Below are positions 2 to 15,380 of a DNA stretch of 15,380 nt, in pieces. The stretch comes from Candidatus Heimdallarchaeota archaeon B3_Heim (GTDB lineage Archaea > Asgardarchaeota > Heimdallarchaeia > Hodarchaeales > Hodarchaeaceae). The stretch spans positions 1 through 15,380 of the forward strand of contig NJBF01000057.1 in NCBI GenBank assembly GCA_003144275.1, written 5' to 3'. The notes under the pieces were generated by a model. The model was not told the DNA's origin, made no database searches, and saw only the letters and a list, made by a program, of their open reading frames with translations. The position numbers and the translations under genes are program-made. Within the stretch, counting starts at the first letter, position 1; each line of letters opens with the position of its first letter.

Positions 2-109
2 GATTGGCTAGATTATGATCAGAAATACGGCAGTACTCTTCCAAATCTTCTAACTGCCCTCATAAAAGTAGTTCCTTCAATGGAGGTGACGCGTTGTAAA
101 AGCTATTAA
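2..109 (+). CDS. 3' end of a gene truncated by the window start (unknown product)
   Basis: Frame 2 is open from the window edge (DWLDYDQKYGSTLPNLLTALIKVVPSMEVTRCKSY) to TAA at 107-109, 40 nt before the next gene on the same strand. No family motif recognised. Confidence 0.4.
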   Translation, partial: DWLDYDQKYGSTLPNLLTALIKVVPSMEVTRCKSY

Positions 110-149
110 AAAAAAAGTGGAAAAAAAGACGAATTGAAGAGATATACAA

Positions 150-959
150 ATGAAAATTGCGATTTTATACTTCTCAGGAACAGGAGTTACAGAAGAATAC
201 GCGAATATTATAGCCGATGAACTAGAACAGAAAGGAGAGGTAATATCACTCCATAATATCACTAGTTTTAAAGCTAGGGAAACAAATATTGATTTTATAG
301 AATGTGACGCGCTTATTTTTGGTTTTCCTGTTTATGGGGGTCGACTCCCCCCTGTTACCGAGGCATGGCTTTCCCTCTTAGAAGGAAACCAACGATGCTC
401 CATGTACTTTACGTACGGAGGCCGAGATCTAGAATGGGCTCATCAAATCGGGTATCACTTGTTATCAAAAGCGAAGTTTACGGTGGTTTTATCAGCAGAA
501 CTGCTTGGAAAGCATTCCTTCAATGTTGCAAAAGGGTGGAACTTGGCGTTCGATCGTCCAAGCTCCCATGATATCGTGACAGCAAAAAATTTTGCTTTTG
601 AATCGCTGAAACGCTTTCAAGGAAGTGAAATAAAGTGGGATTATGATTTGGAGGGCTTTCATTATCATCCATGGGAAACAAAGGAATATTATGGCCCTTT
701 TAGTATATTTTTTCCTTTTAAAACCCAAGACTGCCGAATGTGCTATCAATGTGAAAAAGAATGCCCAACTCAGGCGTTTAATTTGTCATTAGGAAAAGCA
801 ACGAATGGAGTATGTATCCAATGCATGCGGTGCGTAACAATTTGTCCAGACCATGTCATTGAGGTGGGAGATGCTACCGAATTGTTCCAGCAATTCAAAG
901 AGACACTCGATTTGAGTCCAGAGAATGTCAAAAATAAGAAAAGCAGAATAATCTATTAG
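150..959 (+). CDS. Flavodoxin-domain / 2x[4Fe-4S] ferredoxin fusion (EFR1-like ferrodoxin)
   Basis: N-terminal flavodoxin FMN loop YFSGTGVT, plus FGFPVYGG and FTYGG. C-terminal pair of CxxCxxCxxxCP motifs (CRMCYQCEKECP, CIQCMRCVTICP). Confidence 0.9.
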   Translation: MKIAILYFSGTGVTEEYANIIADELEQKGEVISLHNITSFKARETNIDFIECDALIFGFPVYGGRLPPVTEAWLSLLEGNQRCSMYFTYGGRDLEWAHQIGYHLLSKAKFTVVLSAELLGKHSFNVAKGWNLAFDRPSSHDIVTAKNFAFESLKRFQGSEIKWDYDLEGFHYHPWETKEYYGPFSIFFPFKTQDCRMCYQCEKECPTQAFNLSLGKATNGVCIQCMRCVTICPDHVIEVGDATELFQQFKETLDLSPENVKNKKSRIIY

Positions 960-1018
960 TCTAATCAAAAAAAAAGACGACTCAAATAGAAAACAAGTTT
1001 CAAAAACAGAAAATTTCG

Positions 1019-1078
1019 GAGAAAAGGGAGGGAGGAGTTTGGAAGAAACTAGCACTCCCCTACACTGGATGGTAGTGA
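1019..1078. repeat. Dispersed intergenic repeat, copy A
   Basis: GAGAAAAGGGAGGG (1019-1032) and CCCCTACACTGGA (1057-1069) are identical to 2830-2843 and 2861-2873. The 22-nt core 1057-1078 is 18/22 identical to copy B, and all four differences are transitions. Confidence 0.9.
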
Positions 1079-1116
1079 AAAAGAACGTCTGATTGATACC
1101 AAGAGAGTCAGGAAGC

Positions 1117-1168
1117 TCTGAATTTAAACCCATCTAGGAGGAGTTCAGAATTCCCTTCAGTGGGAATT
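1117..1168. other. Two adjacent inverted repeats (hairpins) between convergent genes; possible terminator or structured RNA
   Basis: TCTGAATT (1117-1124) can pair with GAGTTCAGA (1141-1149) using one G-U pair. AATTCCC-ttcagt-GGGAATT (1149-1168) is a perfect 7-bp stem. Confidence 0.5.
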
Positions 1169-1188
1169 ACCGCAGAAGAGGTTAAATC

Positions 1189-2052
1189 CTAGAAGATTGC
1201 ATTAAAGAGGGAAAAAAGCGTTTTAATCCCCTTCTTATCAATATCAATTTTTGGATGGTAACAAGCAATACTAATTCCAACTAATTTATTGGTTTTCAAT
1301 ATAAGAGTGAGAAACTCAAGGATTTCATTGTATGAAAAGCCTCCTTTAACTGGATAATAAATAGCTGGCATAATCCGTTTATCCAAAACATCAACATCAA
1401 AATGAAGCCAGATGGGTAAATTGGGATTCTGGAATGAGCTAAGACTTCTAGAAAAGGTGGATCTAATCCCATTCTCTAAGATTGATTTTCGATCAATAAC
1501 TACGATATTCGAGGTTTCAATTAATTCGTATTCCTTTATTCCATATACAACAACATTTTCCTCATCTAATAAAGGACCACGACCCGTCATGCAGACAATT
1601 TCTTCAGATAAATAGCCTGTAAGGGCAGCTAATTCTAGATCTGCGGGTTCACCTGTTGAAGAAGTAGTAATATCATGAAAATCAGCATGTCCATCAAGAA
1701 AAAAAAGGTTCACGGGGAAATTTCGAGCTTTAAAAGCATCAAATATACCCATTAAAATACTACAGTCGCCCCCAAATACCATCGAGAAATTATCTTTATC
1801 CAGTACATCAACTAATGTCTTAGACAAGCTCAAAGATACATCTCGCCAAACATCAAAATTTAGGATCTTTGTACCAGGGTCTTTTCTATTCGAACATGAA
1901 GGAATGTCCAGATCTCCCATATCACTTACCTGATGGCCTTTACTCTGAAGGAAGGAAAGCAATCCCTCATCTCTAAACGATTGACCTGGATTTTCAAGCT
2001 CAGGAGCCGTTCCATCTCCATTAAAAGGAGCTCCAAGAATTGAAATTTTCAT
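1189..2052 (-). CDS. Arginase/ureohydrolase-family metalloenzyme, atypical subgroup
   Basis: GAPF, GGDCS, DGHADF and HFDVDVLD motifs of the arginase fold. GGDH is replaced by GGDC, and the usual catalytic His and late Glu motifs are not evident. Confidence 0.88.
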   Translation of the reverse strand: MKISILGAPFNGDGTAPELENPGQSFRDEGLLSFLQSKGHQVSDMGDLDIPSCSNRKDPGTKILNFDVWRDVSLSLSKTLVDVLDKDNFSMVFGGDCSILMGIFDAFKARNFPVNLFFLDGHADFHDITTSSTGEPADLELAALTGYLSEEIVCMTGRGPLLDEENVVVYGIKEYELIETSNIVVIDRKSILENGIRSTFSRSLSSFQNPNLPIWLHFDVDVLDKRIMPAIYYPVKGGFSYNEILEFLTLILKTNKLVGISIACYHPKIDIDKKGIKTLFSLFNAIF

Positions 2053-2055
2053 GAT

Positions 2056-2691
2056 CTACATCTCTATTTTCCTTGGTTCTCTCACCATCTCCCAAAAATG
2101 AAAATCAGCACCAGGAGCACGCCCCTCATACAAAGTTTGAAAGCCATATTTCGAGTAAATATGCATATTTTTTTCCGTCTGTGTTTCCAAATAGATCAGG
2201 AAACCTTCTATGTCGGCCTTTGCAAACATCGGTTTCAGTAATCTTCCCCCAAACCCCTGGCCTTGGAATTCTGGTAAAACACCGATTGATTGAAGATAGA
2301 AATACGCCCTATCTTTCATATGCTCTCTACGATCGTTATCAATTTGATCAAATAGCTTCTCAACTCTCTTGCCAATTTCTCTTCCCATTTTAAAGGCAGC
2401 TCTAAAAGCTCCACTTCTAAGAATTCTCCATATTGATTTCTCCACCGTTGTATGTGGCACCCACGCAACAATTCCTTCAAGATTTTCCGTAGGAGCATAA
2501 ACTGCTCCATACTTCAATGAATAACGTACCACATATTCAAAAACTGAAGGTAGCTTCTCTTTTCTCGAGTTTTCATCTGTAATTACATATATCCATGCAG
2601 GATCGTTGTGAAAAGCTTTTCCTAAAACGTGACATGCGGTTTCTATATCCTTTTTCTGGATTTTGTACAAATCCTCAATCTTATAAGACAT
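2056..2691 (-). CDS. GNAT-family N-acetyltransferase (puromycin-acetyltransferase-like architecture)
   Basis: AFHNDP near the N-terminus, acetyl-CoA motif A IGVLPEFQGQGFGG, YLET and N..IY.KYGF. The start is placed at ATG 2691 because the ORF-track GTG (2700) lies inside an AGGTGG RBS 5 nt upstream of that ATG. The stop is 3 nt from the arginase start. Confidence 0.92.
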   Translation of the reverse strand: MSYKIEDLYKIQKKDIETACHVLGKAFHNDPAWIYVITDENSRKEKLPSVFEYVVRYSLKYGAVYAPTENLEGIVAWVPHTTVEKSIWRILRSGAFRAAFKMGREIGKRVEKLFDQIDNDRREHMKDRAYFYLQSIGVLPEFQGQGFGGRLLKPMFAKADIEGFLIYLETQTEKNMHIYSKYGFQTLYEGRAPGADFHFWEMVREPRKIEM

Positions 2692-2758
2692 GATTTCCAC
2701 CTAAATAGCAATTTTCAGTCATCCAAGTATCTACCGACATGATTTTTCAGCCATTCAA

Positions 2759-2765
2759 TTATATA
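2759..2765 (-). promoter_or_regulatory. Candidate TATA box for the GNAT-arginase operon
   Basis: Minus-strand TATATAA preceded by purine-rich GAAACAGAAGC, about 70 nt upstream of ATG 2691. Motif match only. Confidence 0.3.
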
Positions 2766-2829
2766 TGCTTCTGTTTCATCCAGGTATTAGCTTTGAAACC
2801 TTGAACTAAGAAAAAGAAAAAATAGCATT

Positions 2830-2882
2830 GAGAAAAGGGAGGGGATTCTCAAGGAGAAAACCCCTACACTGGACGACGGTGA
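2830..2882. repeat. Dispersed intergenic repeat, copy B
   Basis: Shares exact 14-mer and 13-mer blocks with copy A. The core 2861-2882 is 19/22 identical to copy D. Contains the hairpin GGGG-A-TTCTC-AAG-GAGAA-AA-CCCC (2841-2864). Confidence 0.9.
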
Positions 2883-3116
2883 GTACACGCCACAAAGAGA
2901 AGTACACCTTTCTTTCACATGAATTAAATTTCATAGACAATGTCGGTATAAGAGAAAGTTATCCTATATCAACTTTAGGTACTCAAACTAAGAAAATAAT
3001 CGCTTTAACAAAAAATACTCATAGTAAGTAAATCAAATCAGAATATCCATCTGTAGTTCCTATCTATGGAAATTTAACTAGATTAAATCTGGAAATAAAT
3101 TCCTACAAATCAACTA

Positions 3117-3124
3117 TTATAAAT
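3117..3124 (+). promoter_or_regulatory. Candidate TATA box for the permease operon
   Basis: TTATAAAT about 60 nt upstream of ATG 3186. Motif match only. Confidence 0.3.
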
Positions 3125-3185
3125 AAGTAAAAGAGAATTAATGCTATTTAGTTTTTCGAGAAGATAAATCCTCAAAGAAATTCAT

Positions 3186-6161
3186 ATGACGATAATAGGA
3201 AGTCAAAATCACGTGTCATTAAAAATAACCGTTACAAAAGTAATAAATCCCTTAATTTTAACCTATGAACTTATGGTAACGAATAGACGGCTAATAGTTC
3301 CGACAATGATAGGACTTATCATAGCACTAACCGTTATATCTGAAACAAATGTAATGATTGACTCTTATCGTCAAGAAATATTCGAAGAAATGATTTTCAA
3401 CCAGAGTAACAGATTCAATGGAGATATTCAAATCGGTATGGATTATTCTTCTGTGTCCGATTATTCAAATTTCGAGGATCTAAAGAGTATTTTTAATCAA
3501 ACTGCAGAATTATACAATTACCAAGAAAGAATTCTTGAATCTCAATGGTATAGTTCCCAAACTGTTGGTTTTTGGGTCAAGAATGAAAGGGAGTATGGAA
3601 CATATTGGGAGTTCAGAGATTTAGAATTGTATTCTTCTGGAGCACCAGAGTTTTATTCAAAAATCCTACCCTTTCTAGATGGGGAACTACCAGCAAATTC
3701 TAGTGAAGTAATCCTAATTCGTCCTGAGGGTAATCCAGTCTCATCATGGGAAATTGAGGAAGAAAATCAATATGAGAATTTTACGTTAAATAATCAAGTA
3801 AATATTAGTCTAAGAAACTATGAGGGACCATCAGTAAATAAAACTGTCACAATTACAGGAATCTTAACCTATCCTCGAGAAGATGAATACAAGATTCTAA
3901 TGGATTCAGGAGAAGCAGGTGATACCTCAATTTCTGAAGTGAATACAACACTGGAGTTACTCAGAAAATATCTGGATCCATATACCTTCAATCCATATAG
4001 GTCCGCTAGATTCTATTTACTGACAGACCCTATTATGTTTAAAGAATTACTAGAAGACCTTTCAGAAGGGTTAAGCGAAGGATTTTGGGGTGCACGAGTC
4101 CGTGGAAAGATATTTTTTGATCATTCACAAATGGATGCATATAACGTGGGACAAGAAATATCATCCCTGCGGAAATTCCTCCAAGGATTAGAAGAAGCCT
4201 ATCAGAAGGAGGGTTATCACGGTTATGTATACTCCAATGTTTTAGACCAGATGCAATTTTATCAAATGCAAATTTTTGTCTTAACAATAATGTTATTGCT
4301 CGTAAGTTTTCCTGTTATTTGTATCGCTCTTTATTTAGTCATCTATTCTTTTGGATTGATACGTCGTCAGAAACAGGATCAAATTGGTATTTTAAAGACA
4401 CGAGGAGGATCCTCAGTTCAAATTTTCACAGTCTTACTAGGAGAAATGATAATCTCAACTCTAATAACAGTTGTGGCTGGATTTGTCATAAGCATCTTTT
4501 TTGCAGACTTAGTGATGCGATCGAGTGATTTTCTCGTTTTTCTTGGAACACCTGTGCCAGTAAAGGCAACCCTCAATTCACTCCAAACCTTAATCATTTG
4601 GGGATTGATAATATCCTTACTCCTAAATTTCGTTCGCATTTTCAAGATGAGTCGCCAAAAAATAATGGAAACAATTATTCCAACGGAGAAACAGCCTCCT
4701 TTTTGGAAAAGATATTACCTAGATGTCATAATGTTCGCTATCGGTACGGTGACATGGCTTATCCTTCTAACCCTGATTAATAGGCCCTATACAGAGGATG
4801 CTGGAGAAGGGTACTATATAATTGTTCAAATAGTTGCATTATTAGGTATTCCAGCACCGTTCATGATGTTTTTTGGATCAATAATGGTGATTGCCCGTTT
4901 ATTCCCCTACCTAATGAAAATGTTATCGGATTTTCTGTGGCGAGTTGAAGGGGGGGTGAATGCGTTCGCTATTCGCAATGTAGTTCGACACAAGCAATCA
5001 GCAAACCGTGCAGTATTATTGATCACTCTTGCTCTCGCATTTTCAATACTCGCGTCATCCTTGATTTTTTCAGCCGATGAAACACAAAAAAATTCTCTCT
5101 ATTATCAACATGGGGCGGATATAGTAGTATCAACGGGACAAACAGCTAATGGTACCCTATTATCAATCCTTGAAGAAAATATCTCGTACATCTCAGAAGT
5201 AAGTCACGTATACGAAGCACAATATGAAACAAGAGGAACTTACTATAAATATGTACAGTGCAGGTTTATTGATCCATCTACATATGCTCAGGCTGCATAT
5301 ACTGATTCAATCTCTGGATTAAGCAACTCATTAAACCATTTGATGAATGTGATCTCCGATAACGAGAGTATTATTTTATATAAAGGGAATATGGAAGCAG
5401 AAGTTACAAAACCATCCATTGGGGATACAATCGATTTCCCATTCCAAAGTGTAAACTACACTGAATCAGTGCCTTTAAAAATTGGTGGGACGTTTAAATA
5501 CTGGCCCACTTTGTATCCTTGGGGTTGGGATGAGCCTTCTCGGTATTATTGGCTTGTGGGAAGTATAGGCTTATATGAAACCTTAAATGCATCTGGTTAT
5601 GAAATAAACAACATAAACAGTAATTATTTGGTAAAAACTACGTCCATTGATCATATTGAGGAAACTTACCTGGCTATTCAAAATCAAACGACCGCTCAGG
5701 TTTATTCGCCAGCATTAGAATTTCAAGAGTATAAAGACTCCTTTGGTCGATCATTTATGCTTTCAATCCTCAATTCAGACTTGATATTATGTGCGATTAT
5801 CTCTGTTGTAGGAGTTATAATGTTTGCATTCTTCACTTATGTAGAACGAGGAAAAGAAATTGGTGTGGAACGTGCTCTAGGAATGACGCGGCTGCAAACG
5901 GCTCAATCGTTTTTGGTGGAAGCATTAACAATCTTGTCTTTTGGAACAGTCATAGGGTTTCTAACAGGAGCCTATTTTGTAACCATGTTTTTACAAATCA
6001 TACAATTAGGGGAATCAATCCCACCGGTTACGGTGCATTATCCCTTCGTATTACTAGGCCAGTTAATTATTGCAATCTTAGTAGCCGCAGGCATTGGTAC
6101 AGTAGTACCTGCAATAATGGCCACTCGCAAAGATATCAGCAGGATTCTCAAGGTGGAGTAA
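3186..6161 (+). CDS. Large MacB/FtsX-like (type VII) ABC transporter permease with two extracytoplasmic domains
   Basis: 991-aa ORF: N-terminal TM, ~300-aa soluble domain, FtsX block (RRQKQDQIGILKTRGGS), further TMs, AIRNVVRHKQ...RA motif, second soluble domain, second FtsX block (ERGKEIGVERALGM) and C-terminal PAIMATRKDISRILKVE. Adjacent to two LolD/MacB-type ATPases. Exact start uncertain. Confidence 0.93.
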   Translation: MTIIGSQNHVSLKITVTKVINPLILTYELMVTNRRLIVPTMIGLIIALTVISETNVMIDSYRQEIFEEMIFNQSNRFNGDIQIGMDYSSVSDYSNFEDLKSIFNQTAELYNYQERILESQWYSSQTVGFWVKNEREYGTYWEFRDLELYSSGAPEFYSKILPFLDGELPANSSEVILIRPEGNPVSSWEIEEENQYENFTLNNQVNISLRNYEGPSVNKTVTITGILTYPREDEYKILMDSGEAGDTSISEVNTTLELLRKYLDPYTFNPYRSARFYLLTDPIMFKELLEDLSEGLSEGFWGARVRGKIFFDHSQMDAYNVGQEISSLRKFLQGLEEAYQKEGYHGYVYSNVLDQMQFYQMQIFVLTIMLLLVSFPVICIALYLVIYSFGLIRRQKQDQIGILKTRGGSSVQIFTVLLGEMIISTLITVVAGFVISIFFADLVMRSSDFLVFLGTPVPVKATLNSLQTLIIWGLIISLLLNFVRIFKMSRQKIMETIIPTEKQPPFWKRYYLDVIMFAIGTVTWLILLTLINRPYTEDAGEGYYIIVQIVALLGIPAPFMMFFGSIMVIARLFPYLMKMLSDFLWRVEGGVNAFAIRNVVRHKQSANRAVLLITLALAFSILASSLIFSADETQKNSLYYQHGADIVVSTGQTANGTLLSILEENISYISEVSHVYEAQYETRGTYYKYVQCRFIDPSTYAQAAYTDSISGLSNSLNHLMNVISDNESIILYKGNMEAEVTKPSIGDTIDFPFQSVNYTESVPLKIGGTFKYWPTLYPWGWDEPSRYYWLVGSIGLYETLNASGYEINNINSNYLVKTTSIDHIEETYLAIQNQTTAQVYSPALEFQEYKDSFGRSFMLSILNSDLILCAIISVVGVIMFAFFTYVERGKEIGVERALGMTRLQTAQSFLVEALTILSFGTVIGFLTGAYFVTMFLQIIQLGESIPPVTVHYPFVLLGQLIIAILVAAGIGTVVPAIMATRKDISRILKVE

Positions 6162-6167
6162 AGAAAA

Positions 6168-7043
6168 ATGGCCTTTTTAGAGTGTAATGACTTAATTAAA
6201 TTATATACTGATGAACAAAGTAAAATCCAAGTTCCCGCACTTCGAGGGGTGGAACTCACAGCCAATGAAGGAGATTTGGTGTCCATTATCGGCCCCAGTG
6301 GGTCAGGCAAAAGCACCCTGATTAATCTCATCGGGGGGATAGATAAACCCTCTTCGGGGGAAATAATTCTTGACGGGAATATTATAACGACGTTAAAAGG
6401 ACGAGAATTAACTAAATATCGAAGAAATCGTATTGGTTTCTTGTATCAATTACCCGAACGTAACTTAATCTGGAACTTAAGTGCACTCAAGAATGTAATT
6501 GTACCAATGCGACTTTCAGGCAAGTGGAGCCATAATATTCAGAAAAAGAGAGCAGCGGAACTCTTAAAAGATGTAGGGTTAGACCAAAGGAAGAACCACA
6601 AACCCCATCAACTTTCTGGAGGGGAAGCTCAACGGGCAGGCATTGCAGTCGCATTAGCTAATGATCCTGATATCATACTTGCAGATGAACCGACAGGAGA
6701 ACTGGATAGTGTAACTACTTTTAAAATCATTGATTACTTCAAACAATTAAATAAGACACTTGGAAAAACGTTTATCGTAGTTACACATGATCATCGATTT
6801 GCAAATATGACCACAAAGGCAATGAGAATTATGGATGGCCGTATTATCGGTCTACACAGAGCGATTGACCCACGGAAATCCTTTTTGGACCGAGAAGAGG
6901 TGCTATTTGTTGATGATCATGGAAACTTACGGATTCCAATAAATATCCGCAATGAGGCGGGGATCAAAAACCACGTACAAATAGAGATGCGGGATGGTTT
7001 TGCCACTATTATTCCCGTAAGAGGAGATGAACTGGATGAGTGA
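6168..7043 (+). CDS. ABC transporter ATP-binding protein (LolD/MacB type) with a C-terminal AbrB/SpoVT-like domain
   Basis: Walker A GPSGSGKS, signature LSGGE, Walker B ILADEPTG and VTHD switch. The C-terminal VDDHGNLRIPINIRNEAGIKNHVQIEMRDGFATIIP fits the AbrB swapped-hairpin pattern. GGAG RBS upstream. Confidence 0.95.
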   Translation: MAFLECNDLIKLYTDEQSKIQVPALRGVELTANEGDLVSIIGPSGSGKSTLINLIGGIDKPSSGEIILDGNIITTLKGRELTKYRRNRIGFLYQLPERNLIWNLSALKNVIVPMRLSGKWSHNIQKKRAAELLKDVGLDQRKNHKPHQLSGGEAQRAGIAVALANDPDIILADEPTGELDSVTTFKIIDYFKQLNKTLGKTFIVVTHDHRFANMTTKAMRIMDGRIIGLHRAIDPRKSFLDREEVLFVDDHGNLRIPINIRNEAGIKNHVQIEMRDGFATIIPVRGDELDE

Positions 7044-7728
7044 AAAAACCAGGAAAATTATTGAACTAGAGAATGTGAATCGTCGATATAATATGGGGGA
7101 TTATACAGTCGATGCACTGACGAATATCAACCTCACTGTTCATGAACAAGAATTTATAATGGTAATGGGCCCATCTGGGAGTGGAAAATCAACTTTACTA
7201 AATATAATGGCTGGATTGGAAAAACCATCAGCAGGAACTATACAGATTGATCAACGAGACCTATCCACTCTCAGTGATCGTGTTTTATGTGATATCAGAC
7301 GCTATAAACTGGGATTCATTTTTCAATTCTTTAATCTCCATCCAATCCTAACGACCCTTGAAAATGTAGAATTACCAATGTTAATCAGTGGCGTTAAACG
7401 AAAAGATCGGGTTCCGCGAGCAATGGCCATGTTGGAAATGGTAGGTTTGGAAAAACGCCAACACCATCTCCCTCATGAACTCTCAGGAGGAGAAAAACAG
7501 CGAGTTGGCATTGCCCGATCCCTAGTAAATGATCCTAGTGTTATATTGGCAGATGAGCCAACAGGTGACCTTGATTCTACCACTGGAACTGAAATCATGA
7601 GCTTATTAATGCAGATGAATGAAGAACTTCACAAAACAATTGTATGTGTTACCCATGATGAAGCGATGTTAAAACCTAACATACGGTTAATTAAAATGGA
7701 AGATGGAAAAATCATTTCTGATACTTGA
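7036..7728 (+). CDS. ABC transporter ATP-binding protein (LolD/MacB type)
   Basis: [39 protein letters not shown] and VTHD. The start is placed at ATG 7036 (ATGAGTGA overlap with the upstream stop) rather than 7027. Confidence 0.95.
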
Positions 7729-8627
7729 TACATATACAAAGAGTGGAGCGATTACATATGCAACCATTGAGACTACAGAAGGAGTTTGATCTATTATATG
7801 AAAAAGAATTTCTATTACCTGGCGATAAACAACAAGATATTCAGATAAATAAGCATGAACATGAAATTTGGGCCAAGGTTTTTTGGCGGAGACGATTTAG
7901 ACACGCCAAGAGAGAGGATCCTGAGCTACAATTTGTATTCCAACAAAACCCCTCTACACTACTTGAAATTGGAGCTGGCTACGGGAGAGTACTAAGAAAA
8001 CTCGTAGAAAGGAACGGAGGGAATAAAAAAATGAGAAGCATTCAAGGAATAGACATTTGTGAACATTTTGCACCCTATTTTCACCTTTACAAAACAGAAT
8101 ATCCCTCGTTACGAAACGTTGAAATGATATATGATAATTTTCTAGAGTCACAGAAGCTAAAAGAGAATTCATGTGACATCATTTTATTACCTATGAATAC
8201 CATACCGAGTTTTTCGATAGACCTTTTAAAAACACTCTTTATAACAGTAGGTAGATACTTAACAAAAGATGGGATGTTCTTATTTTCTAATTATAAAATT
8301 CCAGACAAAGAACGAGTGTCTGCGTTAATTAATAGGAGACAAGGTCATTCTGGGGAACTATTATTAGAATTGGGATCAGGATTTATCGCAGCAGAATATT
8401 ATGACCTCCCAGCAAGAAAAACAGAATATGGGGCATATAATGTCACTTATGCGCGCTATAATACCTTTTCTCGTGATAACACTTTACAGAAAAAAGAACT
8501 TTTTCGCTCGCAAACAGAGTTTATTTTACATCAACATTTACAGAAAATAATTGAAACCTGTGGGCTTTCTATTGAGATTTTTGATGATACCAGCCATTCA
8601 TTTACATATGGATTAACCAAGCAGTAA
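7725..8627 (+). CDS. Class I SAM-dependent methyltransferase
   Basis: Motif I LLEIGAGYGRV, acidic motif II GID, YDNF, motif IV DIILLPMNT, and YLTKDGMFLF. The start is either TTG 7725 (TTGA overlap with the ATPase stop) or ATG 7758 (GGAG 9 nt upstream). Confidence 0.88.
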   Translation: MIHIQRVERLHMQPLRLQKEFDLLYEKEFLLPGDKQQDIQINKHEHEIWAKVFWRRRFRHAKREDPELQFVFQQNPSTLLEIGAGYGRVLRKLVERNGGNKKMRSIQGIDICEHFAPYFHLYKTEYPSLRNVEMIYDNFLESQKLKENSCDIILLPMNTIPSFSIDLLKTLFITVGRYLTKDGMFLFSNYKIPDKERVSALINRRQGHSGELLLELGSGFIAAEYYDLPARKTEYGAYNVTYARYNTFSRDNTLQKKELFRSQTEFILHQHLQKIIETCGLSIEIFDDTSHSFTYGLTKQ

Positions 8628-8633
8628 AGAATT

Positions 8634-8678
8634 AGTTATGGAGAAAACTCACAGACCCCTACGCAGGACGACGATGAG
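8634..8678. repeat. Dispersed intergenic repeat, copy D
   Basis: Core CCCCTACGCAGGACGACGATGA (8656-8677) is 19/22 identical to copy B and 15/22 to copy A. It is preceded by AGTTATGGAGAAAACT, resembling AGTTTGGAAGAAACT in A and GGAGAAAAC in B. It fills most of the 66-nt gap between convergent genes. Confidence 0.85.
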
Positions 8679-8693
8679 CAAGAAAACGATGCA

Positions 8694-10217
8694 CTAATCA
8701 TACCGGATTTCTGATTTTATTAAAATAATAGAACCCAGAAAGAAAATGAACGCAAAAATGATATTTGTCCATAATACGAAGAAAAGGATATCCGCAGCTT
8801 TTGGATCGGAAATAAAGTTCGAGACAATTAAACTTGATAAGATTGGTGAGAATGAAATTAGAAAAAACTCTACACCAGGAAATAAAAAAATAGAACCCAT
8901 TAATCCAAGAATTTCAAGTCCAAAAATTGAAAGAACGGCTGATTGAAGTAAATCCTTTACTGGAAAAAGGCGCCATATAAAAATAAGGATGGCCACAAAG
9001 TACAGCGAACGAAAAAATAAATTGACGACAAGAGGAAGAAAGGAGGAGGATTCAGGTCTAAAAAAGAATATGATTGCGATAACTGCAACAAGTGAATTCA
9101 GAAAAATTGGTTTAATAAGTAATAAAACCTTATCAAAGAAATAACGATACGCAGAAATTCGGGTAAGGATCATTTCTTCCATTTTATACTCTTTTTCAGC
9201 AGTAATTCTGGGAAAAATCGTTAGAAAAGCGAAAAGGAGGATAAAAACAAAGTGAAAACAAAAAAATTTGATTCCAATAGTCACAATTAATGAAGTATCT
9301 GGGGATGCGACATACAAGATGAGATAAGGAAGAAAATTGAAAAGGGGGAGTGAATATTGCCAATTAACAAGTCGACTGGACTTTATCGACTCAATCAAAG
9401 CATAAAAATCAGAACTAGGGTCTAAGTCAATAGTCAGATTGTGACCTCCAGAGGTAACAGATTTTATGACAAGCGTAATTAGTCTAGTCATTACTTCTGA
9501 AAGAAGCAATAGAATAATTGCACAAATAACGATGAGCACAAAAAAAGAAAAGGGAAGATTAGCGAATAAAGCAGTAGCAAAAAACACATCAACAATTATG
9601 AAATTCATATCAAATAGGGTAATTATTAGGAGGACGATAATAACCGCTAGAATAGTAATGTAATACAGAAAGACGCGCATCATGGAGGAAGGAAAACGTA
9701 ATTCACAAATTGAAAGAATTAGCGCTGACAGTAAATACCACGTAAGAAAAAAAATAATGATTAAAGGGATAAAGAACAACAAGAGGAGCATAGACAATAT
9801 GTCATTGGTTTTGCTAAGCCCAAAGATGAAAACACCAAAAAAACCGATAATGAGGGGTAAGATCATTAAAAACGCATTAGCAACAATTCGGGAGAAAAAA
9901 AGAGATTTAAACCGAAAGGACGACATAACCATATAATCTAACATGAAGTGTTGTCTTTCTCGAGAGAAGATGTTTAGACTAATAGGAAAAAAGAGAAGGA
10001 AGAAGAAAAGAAAAGGACCAAGTAGTTCAGGATATCCAAAGGGAGGAGGGAAAGAAAAGATAAAAGACAATAAGCTTGGGAGAAGAACTAGAAAAATGGA
10101 ACCATAGTAGCACCACAACAATAAGGAGGATTTCAATCTAAATTTAAACTCATTCGCAGCATAATAGAGAAGGAAGGGATTATTAAGCTCCACACCGAAA
10201 AATCCTCCTCTTATCAT
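8694..10217 (-). CDS. ABC-2-type exporter permease, apparent tandem fusion of two permease units
   Basis: Very hydrophobic ~510-aa ORF with two ABC-2-style cytoplasmic motifs (ERQHFMLDYMVMSSFRFKSLFFSRI and EKEYKMEEMILTRISAYRYFFDKV). The ATG at 10217 overlaps the ATPase TGA (ATGA); the ORF track starts at 10235. Confidence 0.8.
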   Translation of the reverse strand: MIRGGFFGVELNNPFLLYYAANEFKFRLKSSLLLWCYYGSIFLVLLPSLLSFIFSFPPPFGYPELLGPFLFFFLLFFPISLNIFSRERQHFMLDYMVMSSFRFKSLFFSRIVANAFLMILPLIIGFFGVFIFGLSKTNDILSMLLLLFFIPLIIIFFLTWYLLSALILSICELRFPSSMMRVFLYYITILAVIIVLLIITLFDMNFIIVDVFFATALFANLPFSFFVLIVICAIILLLLSEVMTRLITLVIKSVTSGGHNLTIDLDPSSDFYALIESIKSSRLVNWQYSLPLFNFLPYLILYVASPDTSLIVTIGIKFFCFHFVFILLFAFLTIFPRITAEKEYKMEEMILTRISAYRYFFDKVLLLIKPIFLNSLVAVIAIIFFFRPESSSFLPLVVNLFFRSLYFVAILIFIWRLFPVKDLLQSAVLSIFGLEILGLMGSIFLFPGVEFFLISFSPILSSLIVSNFISDPKAADILFFVLWTNIIFAFIFFLGSIILIKSEIRYD

Positions 10218-11173
10218 GATAGAAAATCCATCCATTCAATTTTTGCATGGTTTAAGAAATATATATCTTCTAAAGAGATTAGGTGAGATATGATATTACT
10301 ATCAGTATTAATTGAATCCTTGAACTGCTTATAGATATTTGAAACATACCTCTCTTTGCCATAAAGCTCAATTCCTCTAGCAGACGTATTTACATATAGA
10401 ATCTCATCAACATCAATAAAATCTTTCGCAATTTCCGTGAGATATGGGGCCTTAATCTCTAACCGACGTAATTCTGCGAATTTATGCTTTAATTCTGATA
10501 TCCATAGGGGTTGGTGAAGCATTTTTCCAGCTTCTAGGATAAAAACACGATCGCAAACAGCTTCTACATCTTCCAGAATATGAGAGGAAATAAGAACAGT
10601 CTTGTCAAAATCGTCAGTAAGGTCTAATAAGAATTTACGGACTTGGATTCTTGCCAGAGGATCAAGTCCACTAGTGGGTTCATCAAGAATTAAGAGAGGA
10701 GGATTATGAATTAAAGCAACTCCTAATCCAACTTTGTGTAACATACCCTTAGAGAGAGATTTGATATGGACATTCAAGAACGGTTCAATGTCCAATAACC
10801 TAATTACCCGTTCACGCAAATCTTCTTGATCAACACGTTCTTGTTGGTGAAGCATGGAAAAAAAATTAAGGATATCAGCAACCGTGTAATAAGGATAAAA
10901 AGAAAACCGCTCAGGAAGGTATCCAATGAGCTGCTTGATTTTAAAAGCATCGAGACTGGGATTCAATCCAAAGATTTCAATGATACCATTAGAAGCAAGG
11001 AGAAGCGTTGAAATAATCCTTAACAAAGTCGTTTTACCCGCCCCATTGTTACCCAAGATCCCAATAGTTTCTCCCTCCACAACAGTAAGATCGATATCAC
11101 TTAAAACAACTTTATCAGGATAATAAATCTTTTTTAATCCCTCAATAAAAACAGGTATAGAATAATCAGACAC
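10214..11173 (-). CDS. ABC-2/DrrA-type multidrug-exporter ATP-binding protein
   Basis: Walker A GNNGAGKTT, IGYLPE Q-loop region, LSKGM signature, LILDEPTSGLDP and ISSH. GTG start. Confidence 0.95.
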   Translation of the reverse strand: MSDYSIPVFIEGLKKIYYPDKVVLSDIDLTVVEGETIGILGNNGAGKTTLLRIISTLLLASNGIIEIFGLNPSLDAFKIKQLIGYLPERFSFYPYYTVADILNFFSMLHQQERVDQEDLRERVIRLLDIEPFLNVHIKSLSKGMLHKVGLGVALIHNPPLLILDEPTSGLDPLARIQVRKFLLDLTDDFDKTVLISSHILEDVEAVCDRVFILEAGKMLHQPLWISELKHKFAELRRLEIKAPYLTEIAKDFIDVDEILYVNTSARGIELYGKERYVSNIYKQFKDSINTDSNIISHLISLEDIYFLNHAKIEWMDFLS

Positions 11174-11337
11174 TACTATCCACTCGGTTAACTGATGGTG
11201 TAGTTCACCTTAAAAATACTTTCTTCTGTTCAAAGAATGTATTACAAAAACGATGGTAAGAATTACGGACAACCAACTTCATTTTAGATGTCGAAAGGAG
11301 GAAAAAAAACCCAAGAAAGATCAGAAAGACAACACCA

Positions 11338-12114
11338 CTAAAGGAATAAGAGTTCGATAACTAAAAAACTTGTACACAGGAGGAAAAAAAGAGGAAAAAG
11401 GGGTAGAAGTTCAGTAAAAGCCAAATGGATTCCAACGACTCCCAAAAATATCGGGAGAACTGAGGTAGAAAAAATAGCTAGAACATCAAGGTCTCCATCC
11501 ACAAAGACGAGTATCTGAAAATGATTACGAGTAAATGAGACAGATAATAATGCATCAAAGGCAAGGACTGAAGGAATCAAGATCAAACCTAGTTTTAACA
11601 ACACTACCAAATTCTTTTGTTTCATTAGCTTGAGGAGATTCATTTGATCTAATCTAGAGAAACGATCAAGAAAAAACAAAAACAAACCAGAAAGAAAAAC
11701 AAAGACAAAATAAAGCAATAAGCAGGCAAAAAATGTCGGATAATGGATAATATTATCTCGGAACCTCATTGTTGAGAGAATATGGGAAGAGGAAACGCTT
11801 ACTAGTAATAATAAGAGAGAAGTCAGGAAAGGAATTATCATTGCCTTTTTTCGGGATTTCTTACTTGGTACAGTAGAGGGGAGATGTAATTTGTCTAAAG
11901 CCTGCAATTTCAAACAAATCAACCCCCAAATAAGGAATAAAGGGGACAGAAACATCAAACCAGTAGGAAATTGCACCCAATCGTACGTGACACCGGGGCC
12001 CCCTTCGGGCCACCAGTAAAGGTCAGTGGTAAAATAAATGCCAAAGATAGCAATAGTAAAATACGCGATCCCAAGATATCTATAAAATTCAATGGTTTCT
12101 GTGATTCGAATCAA
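11338..12114 (-). CDS. Hypothetical polytopic membrane protein
   Basis: 258-aa ORF with roughly 6-7 hydrophobic segments separated by basic loops (SKKSRKK). TTG start; the N-terminus may be frameshifted (see findings). No family recognised. Confidence 0.7.
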   Translation of the reverse strand: MIRITETIEFYRYLGIAYFTIAIFGIYFTTDLYWWPEGGPGVTYDWVQFPTGLMFLSPLFLIWGLICLKLQALDKLHLPSTVPSKKSRKKAMIIPFLTSLLLLLVSVSSSHILSTMRFRDNIIHYPTFFACLLLYFVFVFLSGLFLFFLDRFSRLDQMNLLKLMKQKNLVVLLKLGLILIPSVLAFDALLSVSFTRNHFQILVFVDGDLDVLAIFSTSVLPIFLGVVGIHLAFTELLPLFPLFFLLCTSFLVIELLFL

Positions 12115-12190
12115 AGCAGCTTCTCTTCCTCTTTAGCCCCCAATATTAAAAAACTTCGCATTATGTAATTTTTTTTAACATACAAAAGAC

Positions 12191-12243
12191 GAAGAGAGAG
12201 GAGGTTGAAGAAATAACTCCCCTCAGACAAGGATTTATCTCTG
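12191..12243. repeat. Degenerate relative of the dispersed repeat, copy C
   Basis: GAGGAGGTTGAAGAAATAACTCCCCT resembles GAGGAGTTTGGAAGAAACTAGCACTCCCCT of copy A and forms the same type of hairpin. It is followed by CCT-cagaca-AGGA and later by CTCTGAATT, which is also found downstream of copy A. Core diverged. Confidence 0.6.
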
Positions 12244-12398
12244 AATTAATCATTTGAAACGATGTCTCGCTGGAAGAAATAACTTCCAGGACAAATAACA
12301 TACACATTATGTCAACTTGAACTCCTGGAGCGGGTAAAGAAACAAAGAAATGCTATAATTCTTCAAAAACGGTGATTATAACCTTAAACTGGTTATTT

Positions 12399-12881
12399 TC
12401 ATTTATCGGTATCACTATGTGACCAAATGTAGATAGCTGATACAGACACGGTAGCTACTAGACCAAGAAGGAAAATACAACTCGCAGTAATTTGCATTAA
12501 CCACGACGGTTCCTGCCAGGCTAGGAACTTTCCTGAGACAGGGGTGACTGACTGTAGCTTAATTAGGGTCTGATTTTGTGGTTCTATTGAGGTTTTGTAA
12601 AAGGATCCGTTGAAGACACTGATTCCATCGATAAAGATCTCAATTGAATCATTTGCTTTTATTGTCAAATGTATTCGTGTCTTAGAGTACCAAGGAAATT
12701 GGGTGGTATAGTTATTATAGCTAGTTAAGTGAAAAGGCTCTCCTGCTCCATAACTGGGTACGAGAGTTGGATAAATTACATATGTGAATCCTAGGGCTAT
12801 TATTCCAGAAAAAAGTATTAAAAACGCAAAGATTATCAAAAAAGATACATGTTTTGTTATCCATTTCAGAATAAATCCCAC
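12399..12881 (-). CDS. Hypothetical membrane protein (TM - beta-rich soluble domain - TM)
   Basis: 160-aa ORF with a GTG start, hydrophobic N- and C-terminal helices, and a ~90-aa central domain with alternating hydrophobic residues. Confidence 0.75.
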   Translation of the reverse strand: MGFILKWITKHVSFLIIFAFLILFSGIIALGFTYVIYPTLVPSYGAGEPFHLTSYNNYTTQFPWYSKTRIHLTIKANDSIEIFIDGISVFNGSFYKTSIEPQNQTLIKLQSVTPVSGKFLAWQEPSWLMQITASCIFLLGLVATVSVSAIYIWSHSDTDK

Positions 12882-14100: not shown

Positions 14101-15380
14101 CAGTACTTCGTATCACCTCCTCGAAAATACCCCTTGTCCGTTAAATAGCGTCCGATCCCATGATGTGCGGAGAAATTCACAAAAATCGTTTGCTGTATAA
14201 ACAAAATCCACCCGACACCTACGACTAGTTGGTTTTAAGAGATTAAGCAGCGCTTTAAAGTAGGCCCAGAAATTACATAACCAAAATGCGAGAAGAACGA
14301 TAATAAATCGGACAGCTGGGTGTTGGGAGCAACTAAAAATCTGAAAGCGATGCATCTGCCTATAATAGGTCTCAATCGTGAAACGCTGCCGATAAAGATC
14401 ATAAATCCGTCTTCCTGAGAGAACACAGGTGGGAGGTACAATTAAAGCCATGATACGATCACCTGCTCGGCAAAGAGCGAGCTTAACGGGAAGTCGTTTC
14501 CGAGTATGGCCTTTATTCACACGATAGTCTACAACCAAATGTGTTCCTTTTTGACGTAACTCTTCTTGGTATTTTTGCACCAAAGGTTTAACACCTGCAT
14601 TAACACGTCCTCGAATGATGAAAAAAATTTGCTTATGAATAAACCACTGGATCAAATCATAATTATAAAATCCACCATCCGCAAGTACTCCAACAATTCG
14701 TTCTTGAGTGAGTAGAGGTGTCAAAAGGCTCTGAACAGTCTTGAAAGTCGAATGCTTTGTAGGGAGAAGTTGGACTCCTAACGTGATTGGTTCGGGTGCA
14801 TTTAACCAAATGACTGTGATATATTGATAAAACTGGTGGGTACTGGCTTTCTTCCTACCTTTACAGATATAAGCGGATAAAGTTTTTGCATAATTAGGAT
14901 CAGTATGGAAGTCGATCGCTAGCAACATTCCTTGCTTCCGAGCAAACTGAAAGTTCTCAGGCAGACTCTCTAAGAATTGGTAGAAACCAGTTTGTTGCGA
15001 GGCTGTTATATCTTCAACGGATTTGGTTTTTAACCATGCTAAAGTAGCTTCACCCGAGGGAATTGGGAGGTTTTGCTCTCGTAGATCTCGAGCTTTGCGA
15101 GAAATTGAGGTTCGATCTATAGCGGTAAGTAAAAGTAATTTCAATCTATCCTTCAGGTTGAAAGGCGAGCTACTTGGAACTGGGTTTAATAAGAGTTGAT
15201 ATTTATCTAACCAGCGTACTACAAAGTTTATAAGGGTCGATGTATTTCGTGCTTTCCGTGGTGGAAAGCGAGGTAGTTTTATTTTGTTCATAATGACTAC
15301 TAATTGCTTTTCTCCGCATTTAAGTCTTTCCTCTTCGAGATTTCATGAAGATCACCCTCTCCCATAGTTACGAAGTACTG
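14101..15380 (-). mobile_element. Complete 1280-bp insertion sequence, ISH3-like (IS4 superfamily)
   Basis: Perfect 12-bp terminal inverted repeats CAGTACTTCGTA (14101-14112) and TACGAAGTACTG (15369-15380) enclose a single DDE transposase whose stop abuts the TIR. The target-site duplication cannot be seen because the window ends at the TIR. Confidence 0.93.
14113..15291 (-). CDS. DDE transposase, ISH3-like
   Basis: LAIDFH (D1), VLADGGF (D2) and LYRQRFTIETYYR (E). The Y-x2-R-x3-E-x3-R form without the YREK lysine is, as I recall, the ISH3 variant of the IS4 motif. Confidence 0.92.
   Translation of the reverse strand: MNKIKLPRFPPRKARNTSTLINFVVRWLDKYQLLLNPVPSSSPFNLKDRLKLLLLTAIDRTSISRKARDLREQNLPIPSGEATLAWLKTKSVEDITASQQTGFYQFLESLPENFQFARKQGMLLAIDFHTDPNYAKTLSAYICKGRKKASTHQFYQYITVIWLNAPEPITLGVQLLPTKHSTFKTVQSLLTPLLTQERIVGVLADGGFYNYDLIQWFIHKQIFFIIRGRVNAGVKPLVQKYQEELRQKGTHLVVDYRVNKGHTRKRLPVKLALCRAGDRIMALIVPPTCVLSGRRIYDLYRQRFTIETYYRQMHRFQIFSCSQHPAVRFIIVLLAFWLCNFWAYFKALLNLLKPTSRRCRVDFVYTANDFCEFLRTSWDRTLFNGQGVFSRR

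Follow-up and report, generated by a model that had tools for sequence, protein, structure and literature searches.

A 15,380-nt stretch of DNA from the archaeon Candidatus Heimdallarchaeota archaeon B3_Heim (Hodarchaeales; contig NJBF01000057.1 of assembly GCA_003144275.1) carries a 22-nt core sequence three times on its plus strand, each time between genes, and the question raised by the locus is what this repeat is and how its copies came to lie where they do. The stretch, referred to as the window herein, is the entire contig C60 of a 3.95-Mb genome assembled in 103 contigs, and it is AT-rich (GC about 29-42%). We found that the copies are the 3' coding end and the terminator-like untranslated region (UTR) of one specific gene, which encodes a zinc-ribbon protein and is read on the opposite strand. 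As judged from sequence comparison, they are probably displaced, orphan 3' ends of this gene, left as scars where modules were repeatedly inserted at, or recombined through, the gene end.

The cores lie at 1057-1078 (copy A), 2861-2882 (copy B) and 8656-8677 (copy D). A degenerate core pattern allowing up to three mismatches gave three matches in the window, against 0.00 expected from 200 dinucleotide-preserving shuffles, which bears out the exact positions and the common strand reported for them in a first-pass annotation. Other parts of that description also stood. Copies A and B have the block GAGAAAAGGGAGGG in common, followed by a hairpin that differs between them in sequence and length; the cores are intergenic in that no long open reading frame (ORF) of the window covers any of them, with short ORFs at 789-1133 (minus strand) and 2828-3031 (plus strand) overlapping A and B; and the family is independent of the orientation of its neighbours, as flanking genes occur in all four orientation combinations. 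Looser blocks of similarity downstream of the core had been taken as further parts of the element, and these proved to be the decayed coding part of the opposite-strand gene end.

On the minus strand the CTA within CCCCTAC becomes a TAG stop codon, and the frame closed by this TAG yields, in 13 of 17 family copies, a recognisable part of the C-terminal motif ...(P/L)GFFFLFGFVLILFAAR(A/S)HRRP(V/A), followed by the stop. Seven codons at the end of the gene (H-R-R-P-V/A), its TAG stop and the opening Gs of the 3' UTR make up the 22-nt core, while the purine-rich tail beyond it encodes a Phe/Leu-rich second transmembrane helix. The variation at core position 10 falls on the third base of a Pro codon (CCA/CCT/CCC), and the other variable position produces the Val/Ala change. 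Among codons with a single difference, 40% (last eight codons, 13 copies) to 51% (last 15 codons, eight copies) were synonymous, as counted over non-independent pairs of copies, compared with 17-25% in the other two minus-strand frames, which served as a control, and with 28% expected at random. A small ORF on the plus strand was also considered and rejected: the plus strand is not coding, since the frame of the purine box with respect to the core takes all three values among the copies and a 1-nt indel separates copy B of the window from its ortholog B' in the relative G013.

The relatives compared were G013:C169 (locus L024), G018:C181 (locus L025), G020 and L095 (JGI contig Ga0452209_032021). 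An intact gene is present in G013:C169 at 4588-5127 (minus strand in the orientation of the window), where a 179-aa ORF ends in the core, its end being the best of the copies there. The product starts with a zinc ribbon (Pfam PF13240/PF13248), continues with two transmembrane helices joined by a Gly/Asp-rich loop, and ends in ...LFAARAHRRPV. Full-length homologs, at 87%, 63% and 46% identity, share this C-terminus; one carries the NCBI name zinc-ribbon domain-containing protein, Hodarchaeales, and all directly follow an 80-aa winged-helix (helix-turn-helix) gene. Every genus genome also contains more distant paralogs (28-41%). The orphan ends retain 5-45 codons and lack a usable start codon.

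The 80-aa winged-helix gene itself is ArsR/GntR-like, lies at L095 3045-3287, L024 5150-5392 (minus strand) and L096 3044-3286, and is 95% identical between two metagenome-assembled genomes (MAGs); together with the two-helix zinc-ribbon gene, which it always directly precedes, it forms a conserved regulator/membrane pair. The combination of PGF, helix and basic tail had suggested a PGF-CTERM archaeosortase signal, but no NCBIfam match was obtained at E ≤ 1, and this idea is also contradicted by the two transmembrane helices and by a cytoplasmic-type N-terminal zinc ribbon in place of a signal peptide.

After the stop codon, the gene strand reads GGGG, a hairpin, CCCC and then TCCCTTTTCTCCAT. 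The plus-strand box GAGAAAAGGGAGGGG and the variable hairpin are therefore, on the gene strand, a terminator-like 3' UTR (GGGG-hairpin-CCCCTCCCTTTTCTCCAT). Of the terminator-like sites in the scanned region, copy B ranked best (minus strand, 2864 to 2842, nine pairs followed by CTCCCTTTTC). Across the nine long-type copies, 85.5% of hairpin cells were paired, compared with 73.9% in shuffles (none of 500 reached the observed value), double-change cells numbered 12 versus 5.6, and the covariation score was 0.353 versus 0.149; all of these values exceeded those of every slid register. Covariation support for the hairpin is moderate, as it comes from nine sequences only, which are mutually related. 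The 46%-identical ortholog, found in another metagenome (L096), has a small hairpin and ...CCTTTTCTCCAT after its stop and no extra copies; therefore, the 3' UTR is ancestral and the arrays are derived.

The copies proved to be few. At up to three mismatches, the core pattern matched four places in the whole genome, namely the three window copies and one on contig C67, and a profile built from 15 copies (nhmmer) matched five places in the 3.95 Mb, all on C60 and C67. The genome total is five to six copies on two contigs of ~15 kb, and the purine box was found nowhere else in the genome than at these loci. Using a covariance model (CM) built from the copies, R1, to scan genomes of the genus and class, we found the element in four to five of 22 genus genomes and in four of 83 class genomes, always as a cluster of three to six copies confined to one or two short contigs. 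When 185,579 species genomes were scanned for the exact pattern, only three Hodarchaeota/Heimdall MAGs and three Chloroflexota matches were returned; the latter were not confirmed by the CM and are put down to chance, as are the pattern matches in JGI metagenome contigs, which the CM likewise left unconfirmed. Viral contigs gave no matches.

These counts bear on what the first-pass annotation had made of the repeat, namely a dispersed and autonomous element that could be a small-RNA family, a repetitive extragenic palindrome (REP) or miniature inverted-repeat transposable element (MITE), or a site for protein binding or recombination. Five to six clustered, co-oriented copies on two contigs are not a dispersed family, and so small a number of further copies genome-wide is an outcome that the annotation itself had named as refuting, by which the idea of an autonomous element fails. 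The small-RNA, REP/MITE and binding-element proposals were largely wrong, given that a protein-coding frame on the other strand ends in the core, that copies are few and that Rfam offers no match. A recombination site was loosely right, in that the copies coincide with recombination junctions, though not as an autonomous element. The annotation had been unable to match the repeat to tRNA, CRISPR, riboswitch or ORB patterns; in our scans of the whole window, Rfam covariance models gave no match at E ≤ 1 and ARAGORN found no tRNA or tmRNA.

In two relatives, G013:C169 and L095, an intact gene heads the array, and the orphans are co-oriented and located at synteny breaks. The intact gene of L095 (3307-3903) is followed by five orphan ends on the same strand (Table 1), with CM scores that drop with distance from it, from 84 and 70 bits to ~20 bits. 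The layout of G013:C169 is alike, with the intact gene at the head and copies at 3554, 2611 and 799. On each of the seven contigs concerned, the CM-supported copies, 23 in all, point in one direction, and copies are 75-86% identical to the master end. The modules between them are 1-6 kb long and hold one to four genes in both orientations, the genes between orphan ends being unrelated. On the window contig there are only scars and modules, without an intact gene.

The array of G018:C181 (L025) offers two further observations. A three-gene module at 67-3542 encodes a 454-aa protein, a PqqD-radical SAM/SPASM enzyme and a methyltransferase. Homologous DNA also lies just before its copies E4 and E6 (~8250-8310 and 17270-17333); the 3' end of a PIN-domain gene precedes E4 and a similar stretch precedes E6, which suggests a duplicated toxin-type module within one array.

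Within the window, the copies differ in how much of the gene end they retain (Table 1). Copy A consists of the terminator-like 3' UTR (1016-1059, with the purine box at 1019-1033 on the plus strand), a TAG stop that is the complement of 1060-1062, and the decayed coding remnant ...VLFHYHPV. In copy B the 3' UTR hairpin and T-tract (2827-2863) are followed by the stop (complement of 2864-2866) and 16 remnant codons (KKGVLLFVACTHRRPV, then stop). Copy D is a short form, composed of ATGGAGAAAACTCACAGA and the core without GGGAGGGG and without the hairpin; its 3' UTR is truncated (ATGGAGAAAACTCACAGACCC on the plus strand), its stop is the complement of 8659-8661, and it keeps 12 remnant codons (LVHRFLAHRRPA, then stop), matching the master 3' end of L095 at 93% over 29 nt (blastn). 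A fourth copy, F, is detectable only through protein-level and weak DNA similarity. It has no recognisable stop or terminator, retains ~35 codons from the region of the second transmembrane helix (SNSYSFSGVVFLIFLGFFFLL...), and is the top window tblastn match for the C-terminal 60 aa of proteins P0001, P0003 and P0004 (E 1e-4 to 1e-3); it also resembles copy E5 of G020 (75% over 53 nt, blastn E 1e-5). A fifth, very decayed copy, E, is doubtful. By eye it shows a purine-box-like stretch, a hairpin-like stretch and CCCCTCAGACAAGGAT, all weak, and it gave no CM match at E < 5 and no blast match.

Table 1. Orphan gene ends of the window and of the relative L095, and the window segment absent from G013.
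Feature	Coordinates	Strand	Evidence
Copy A, orphan gene end	1016..1107	-	CM match, 74.3 bits; minus-strand translation; G013:C169 799-899 ortholog with the same flanks
Copy B, orphan gene end	2827..2914	-	CM match, 77.8 bits; translation; terminator-like match; synteny break
Copy D, short-form orphan	8638..8697	-	pattern match; partial CM match 8626-8684; translation; blastn to L095 master 3' end
Copy F, decayed orphan	11250..11354 (about)	-	tblastn and weak blastn similarity
Copy E, possible and very decayed, doubtful	12190..12260	-	read by eye; weak
8.4-kb segment absent between orthologous G013:C169 flanks	2902..11327		blastn, Pfam
L095 orphan ends	4775-4887, 6106-6220, 8585-8753, 9878-9923, 10297-10414	strand of intact gene	CM

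Comparison with the G013 contig places these copies at junctions. Window 990-2901, comprising copy A, an arginase-family gene, a GNAT gene and copy B, corresponds to L024 773-2684 at 94% (blastn), and window 11328-12199, which encodes a 258-aa membrane protein, corresponds to L024 2689-3560 at 91%; in G013 these two blocks are directly adjacent. Synteny ends at window 2901, within the coding remnant of copy B, and the 8.4-kb segment that G013 lacks consists of two modules with copy D between them: one with an FtsX-like permease, two ABC ATPases and a methyltransferase (3186-8627, plus strand), the other with a 513-aa membrane protein and an ABC ATPase (8694-11173, minus strand). The second synteny block stops at candidate copy E, where G013 has a purine-box-only copy. 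The G013 copy B' looks like an F x B recombinant, in which upstream codons of F type (SNFSPFSG) adjoin a hairpin and flank of B type. Further blocks common to more than one genome start immediately behind one copy and stop within the next or ~25-70 nt short of it, and modules of G020 are 94-98% identical to those of the L095 organism, but their neighbours and order differ. The breakpoints are ragged, falling in the purine box, the hairpin or the tail, with some copies reduced to the purine box and others to the core; at one G020 junction, a 6-bp microhomology (ATGGAG) joins the end of a cargo gene to the element.

Two features of these blocks merit separate mention. The segment lacking from G013 contains the entire 3186-8627 operon, in which a 991-aa FtsX-like permease and two ABC ATPases are accompanied by a methyltransferase with a weak match. 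The 3'-terminal codons of the gene for the 258-aa membrane protein share window 11338-11362 and L024 2699-2725 with the upstream part of an orphan remnant (SNSYSFSG / SNFSPFSG) read in another frame and, given this overlap, the stop of that gene may derive from the junction.

A model that would account for these arrays is that accessory gene blocks were repeatedly inserted at, and recombined through, the end of the zinc-ribbon gene. Incoming DNA would carry its own copy of the gene end, such that the older end would be displaced downstream and decay there, and later recombination between co-oriented copies could delete, swap or reorder the blocks. The recombination was probably ordinary homologous or microhomology recombination, possibly via circular intermediates, and would need no dedicated site-specific enzyme; we favour this route because the breakpoints are ragged, the copies have diverged to 75-86% and no recombinase was found. 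A comparable outcome is known from rhs and cdiA C-terminal displacement, where co-oriented orphans downstream of the intact gene are thought to arise from homologous recombination via a shared piece. As in those systems, co-oriented orphans lie downstream of a main gene, here with 5-45 codons of coding sequence retained. In contrast to them, the shared piece is the extreme 3' end and terminator rather than an internal conserved core, and unrelated genes in both orientations stand between the copies, rather than alternative toxin tips and immunity genes; the cargo (arginase-family, GNAT, ABC transporter, DUF3160, NosD-like, radical SAM and others) is unrelated to alternative C-terminal domains.

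Several observations weigh against displacement by module insertion as the explanation. All copies end at one sharp distal boundary, after ...TTTTCTCCAT, with unrelated DNA beyond, and a precise site-specific event would explain this boundary more simply than homologous recombination. The proposed mechanism leaves unexplained how new cargo was first linked to a copy of the gene end. The intact gene is missing from this assembly, in which contig C82 holds only a 30% paralog, in a single copy and without orphans, and the window array is not seen attached to a zinc-ribbon gene. Decay with distance from the intact gene is clear in L095 and non-monotonic in G013 and in the window. The excess of synonymous differences, finally, was counted on pairs that are not independent, with the other frames as its control.

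The strongest alternative, which we nevertheless consider unlikely, is that an integron-like or integrative-element system uses the copies as dedicated recombination sites. A recombinase supplied in trans would insert and excise modules precisely, either at the ...CTCCAT boundary or at the conserved core that surrounds the stop, and gene end and hairpin would together form the attachment site. This alternative is kept alive because the distal boundary, with its unrelated flanks, is sharp and common to all copies. It would also fit the strict co-orientation and the location of the best-conserved segments, CGTCGTCCNGYGTAGGGG and CCCCTCCCTTTTCTCC, on either side of the covarying hairpin, and the cargo (GNAT, PIN, NYN, methyltransferases and unknowns) is of the cassette-array type. 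Divergence of the copies is at odds with it, as they are alike rather than identical, and so are the scattered breakpoints in the purine-box-only, core-only and tail-containing copies and the microhomology junction.

The source of a recombinase is a further difficulty for such a system. A Pfam scan of about 55 cargo ORFs on six array contigs revealed a flavodoxin/4Fe-4S protein, an arginase-family enzyme, GNAT, FtsX and ABC ATPases, methyltransferases, radical SAM/SPASM enzymes, a GH-like protein, NYN and PIN proteins, NosD-type beta-helix proteins, DUF3160, DUF6259, ArsR/AsnC regulators, DinB, ADH, an ERCC4 nuclease-domain protein and a Ras-like GTPase. No integrase or resolvase (including PF00589) was detected among these ORFs, nor did any recombinase adjoin the intact gene. 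The genome does encode about six to eight tyrosine recombinases (PF00589), all on other contigs, which could be counted in favour of an enzyme acting in trans.

Two known systems are closest to this alternative. Integrated mobile genetic elements (iMGEs) of archaea integrate at the 3'-distal parts of protein genes, a Zn-finger gene being reported among the targets in Thaumarchaeota, and re-use of a site gives rise to arrays (PMC6563490); integration leaves partial gene copies as attL and attR, including tRNA-gene fragments (PMC6563490, PMC9897764). Like tandem iMGEs, the arrays described here have direct repeats that are copies of a target-gene 3' end, with the intact gene at one end, and repeated use of one end to give a co-oriented array; this layout is seen in G013:C169 and L095 and is not visible on the window contig. 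Unlike them, 0 of about 25 modules contain an integrase or other mobility gene and the modules are only 1-6 kb long, and the repeats are diverged, ragged and span the whole terminator, whereas an iMGE att site is a short identical core. Canonical integrons with attC sites, and clusters of attC sites lacking integron-integrases (CALINs), have been described in Asgard archaea (PMC9668308). With these the arrays share co-oriented structured repeats between accessory modules, the lack of an integrase on the contig, GNAT and toxin-type cargo, and variation between strains. However, only the inner GGGG-hairpin-CCCC is palindromic here, whereas attC is an imperfect palindrome over the whole site; the modules are multi-gene and of mixed orientation, in contrast to the mostly single, co-oriented ORFs of integrons; and the repeat is homologous to the end of a protein-coding gene. 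Neither did any of 23 copies, on either strand, contain the attC pair R'' (RYYYAAC) and R' (GTTRRRY).

It is very unlikely that the copies are instead functional units under selection on either strand, be it as a small-RNA family or as a portable terminator or insulator against read-through between modules. The hairpin, kept by compensatory changes and followed by a minus-strand T-tract, would suit such a role, as would the position of four of the five window copies (the three firm ones and the doubtful E) just downstream of minus-strand genes. However, copies occur in all four gene-orientation contexts, many lack the hairpin or the core (D and the purine-box-only copies), and covariation can be inherited from functional gene ends. 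Nothing is conserved upstream of the aligned copies, so no promoter travels with them, and Rfam gave no match at E ≤ 1. Single-copy plus-strand folds were mostly no better than shuffles, with mixed z-scores of -3.7 to +0.8 (A +0.4, D +0.6, L009 +0.8) that rule out a uniform stable RNA structure beyond the hairpin. A C/D-box small RNA, to which GTGATGA and CTGA in a few copies might point, was rejected by eye, the box spacing being wrong and the boxes absent from most copies. A REP/MITE-type non-autonomous mobile repeat spreading through the genome is scarcely credible: the repeat is short, structured and intergenic as such repeats are, but this reading is contradicted by its homology to a gene end and by the presence of just five to six copies on two contigs of 3.95 Mb, and the aligned copies lack terminal inverted repeats and target duplications, with 79 of 83 class genomes and the viral and metagenome collections lacking the element altogether.

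Some other features of the window and the genome were noted alongside the arrays. A DDE transposase gene (PF01609) at 14113-15291 (minus strand) stands at the contig end and may explain the assembly break. The GNAT gene at 2056-2700 (minus strand) has 72-83% DNA identity to sequences in at least six other genus genomes; the similarity does not extend beyond the ORF, with unrelated flanks in nearly all of the genomes, as if a single gene moved alone, and no related repeat was found in the flanks in six other genomes. On contig C65 (locus L031) there are two partial 23S rRNA 3' ends, at 12431-12734 and 3498-3825 (both minus strand, model positions 2721-2973), each followed by a common ~70-nt tail (…TTTCTTAGAAGAAATGTGGAAAT…), and this assembly contains no full 23S gene. 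The repeat is not a copy of that tail, since the orphan 23S tail sequence of C65 is unrelated to it and nhmmer gave no cross-matches. The 16S flanks on contig C88 gave no profile match.

Gene-end duplications at insertion sites and arrays of orphan modules are of a known kind, and the zinc-ribbon anchor is a new variant. A more general idea, put forward here tentatively and with considerable doubt, is that Hodarchaeales possess an undescribed mode of gene capture in which an ordinary gene or rRNA offers its terminator-bearing 3' end as a docking and exchange site for integrase-less modules; the sharp ...TTTTCTCCAT boundary could then reflect a precise junction made by an enzyme, or even defined by the transcript end, rather than plain homologous recombination. 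A dedicated mechanism behind such arrays, if true, would raise their interest. In practical terms, such copies break assemblies, create spurious small ORFs, and can be taken for small-RNA genes or attC-like sites, and the master gene with its orphans provides a concrete, testable locus. Hodarchaeales are the archaeal group closest to eukaryotes and, read as scars, the copies would record the entry points of accessory genes, and their direction of entry, in a variable island of one such genome.

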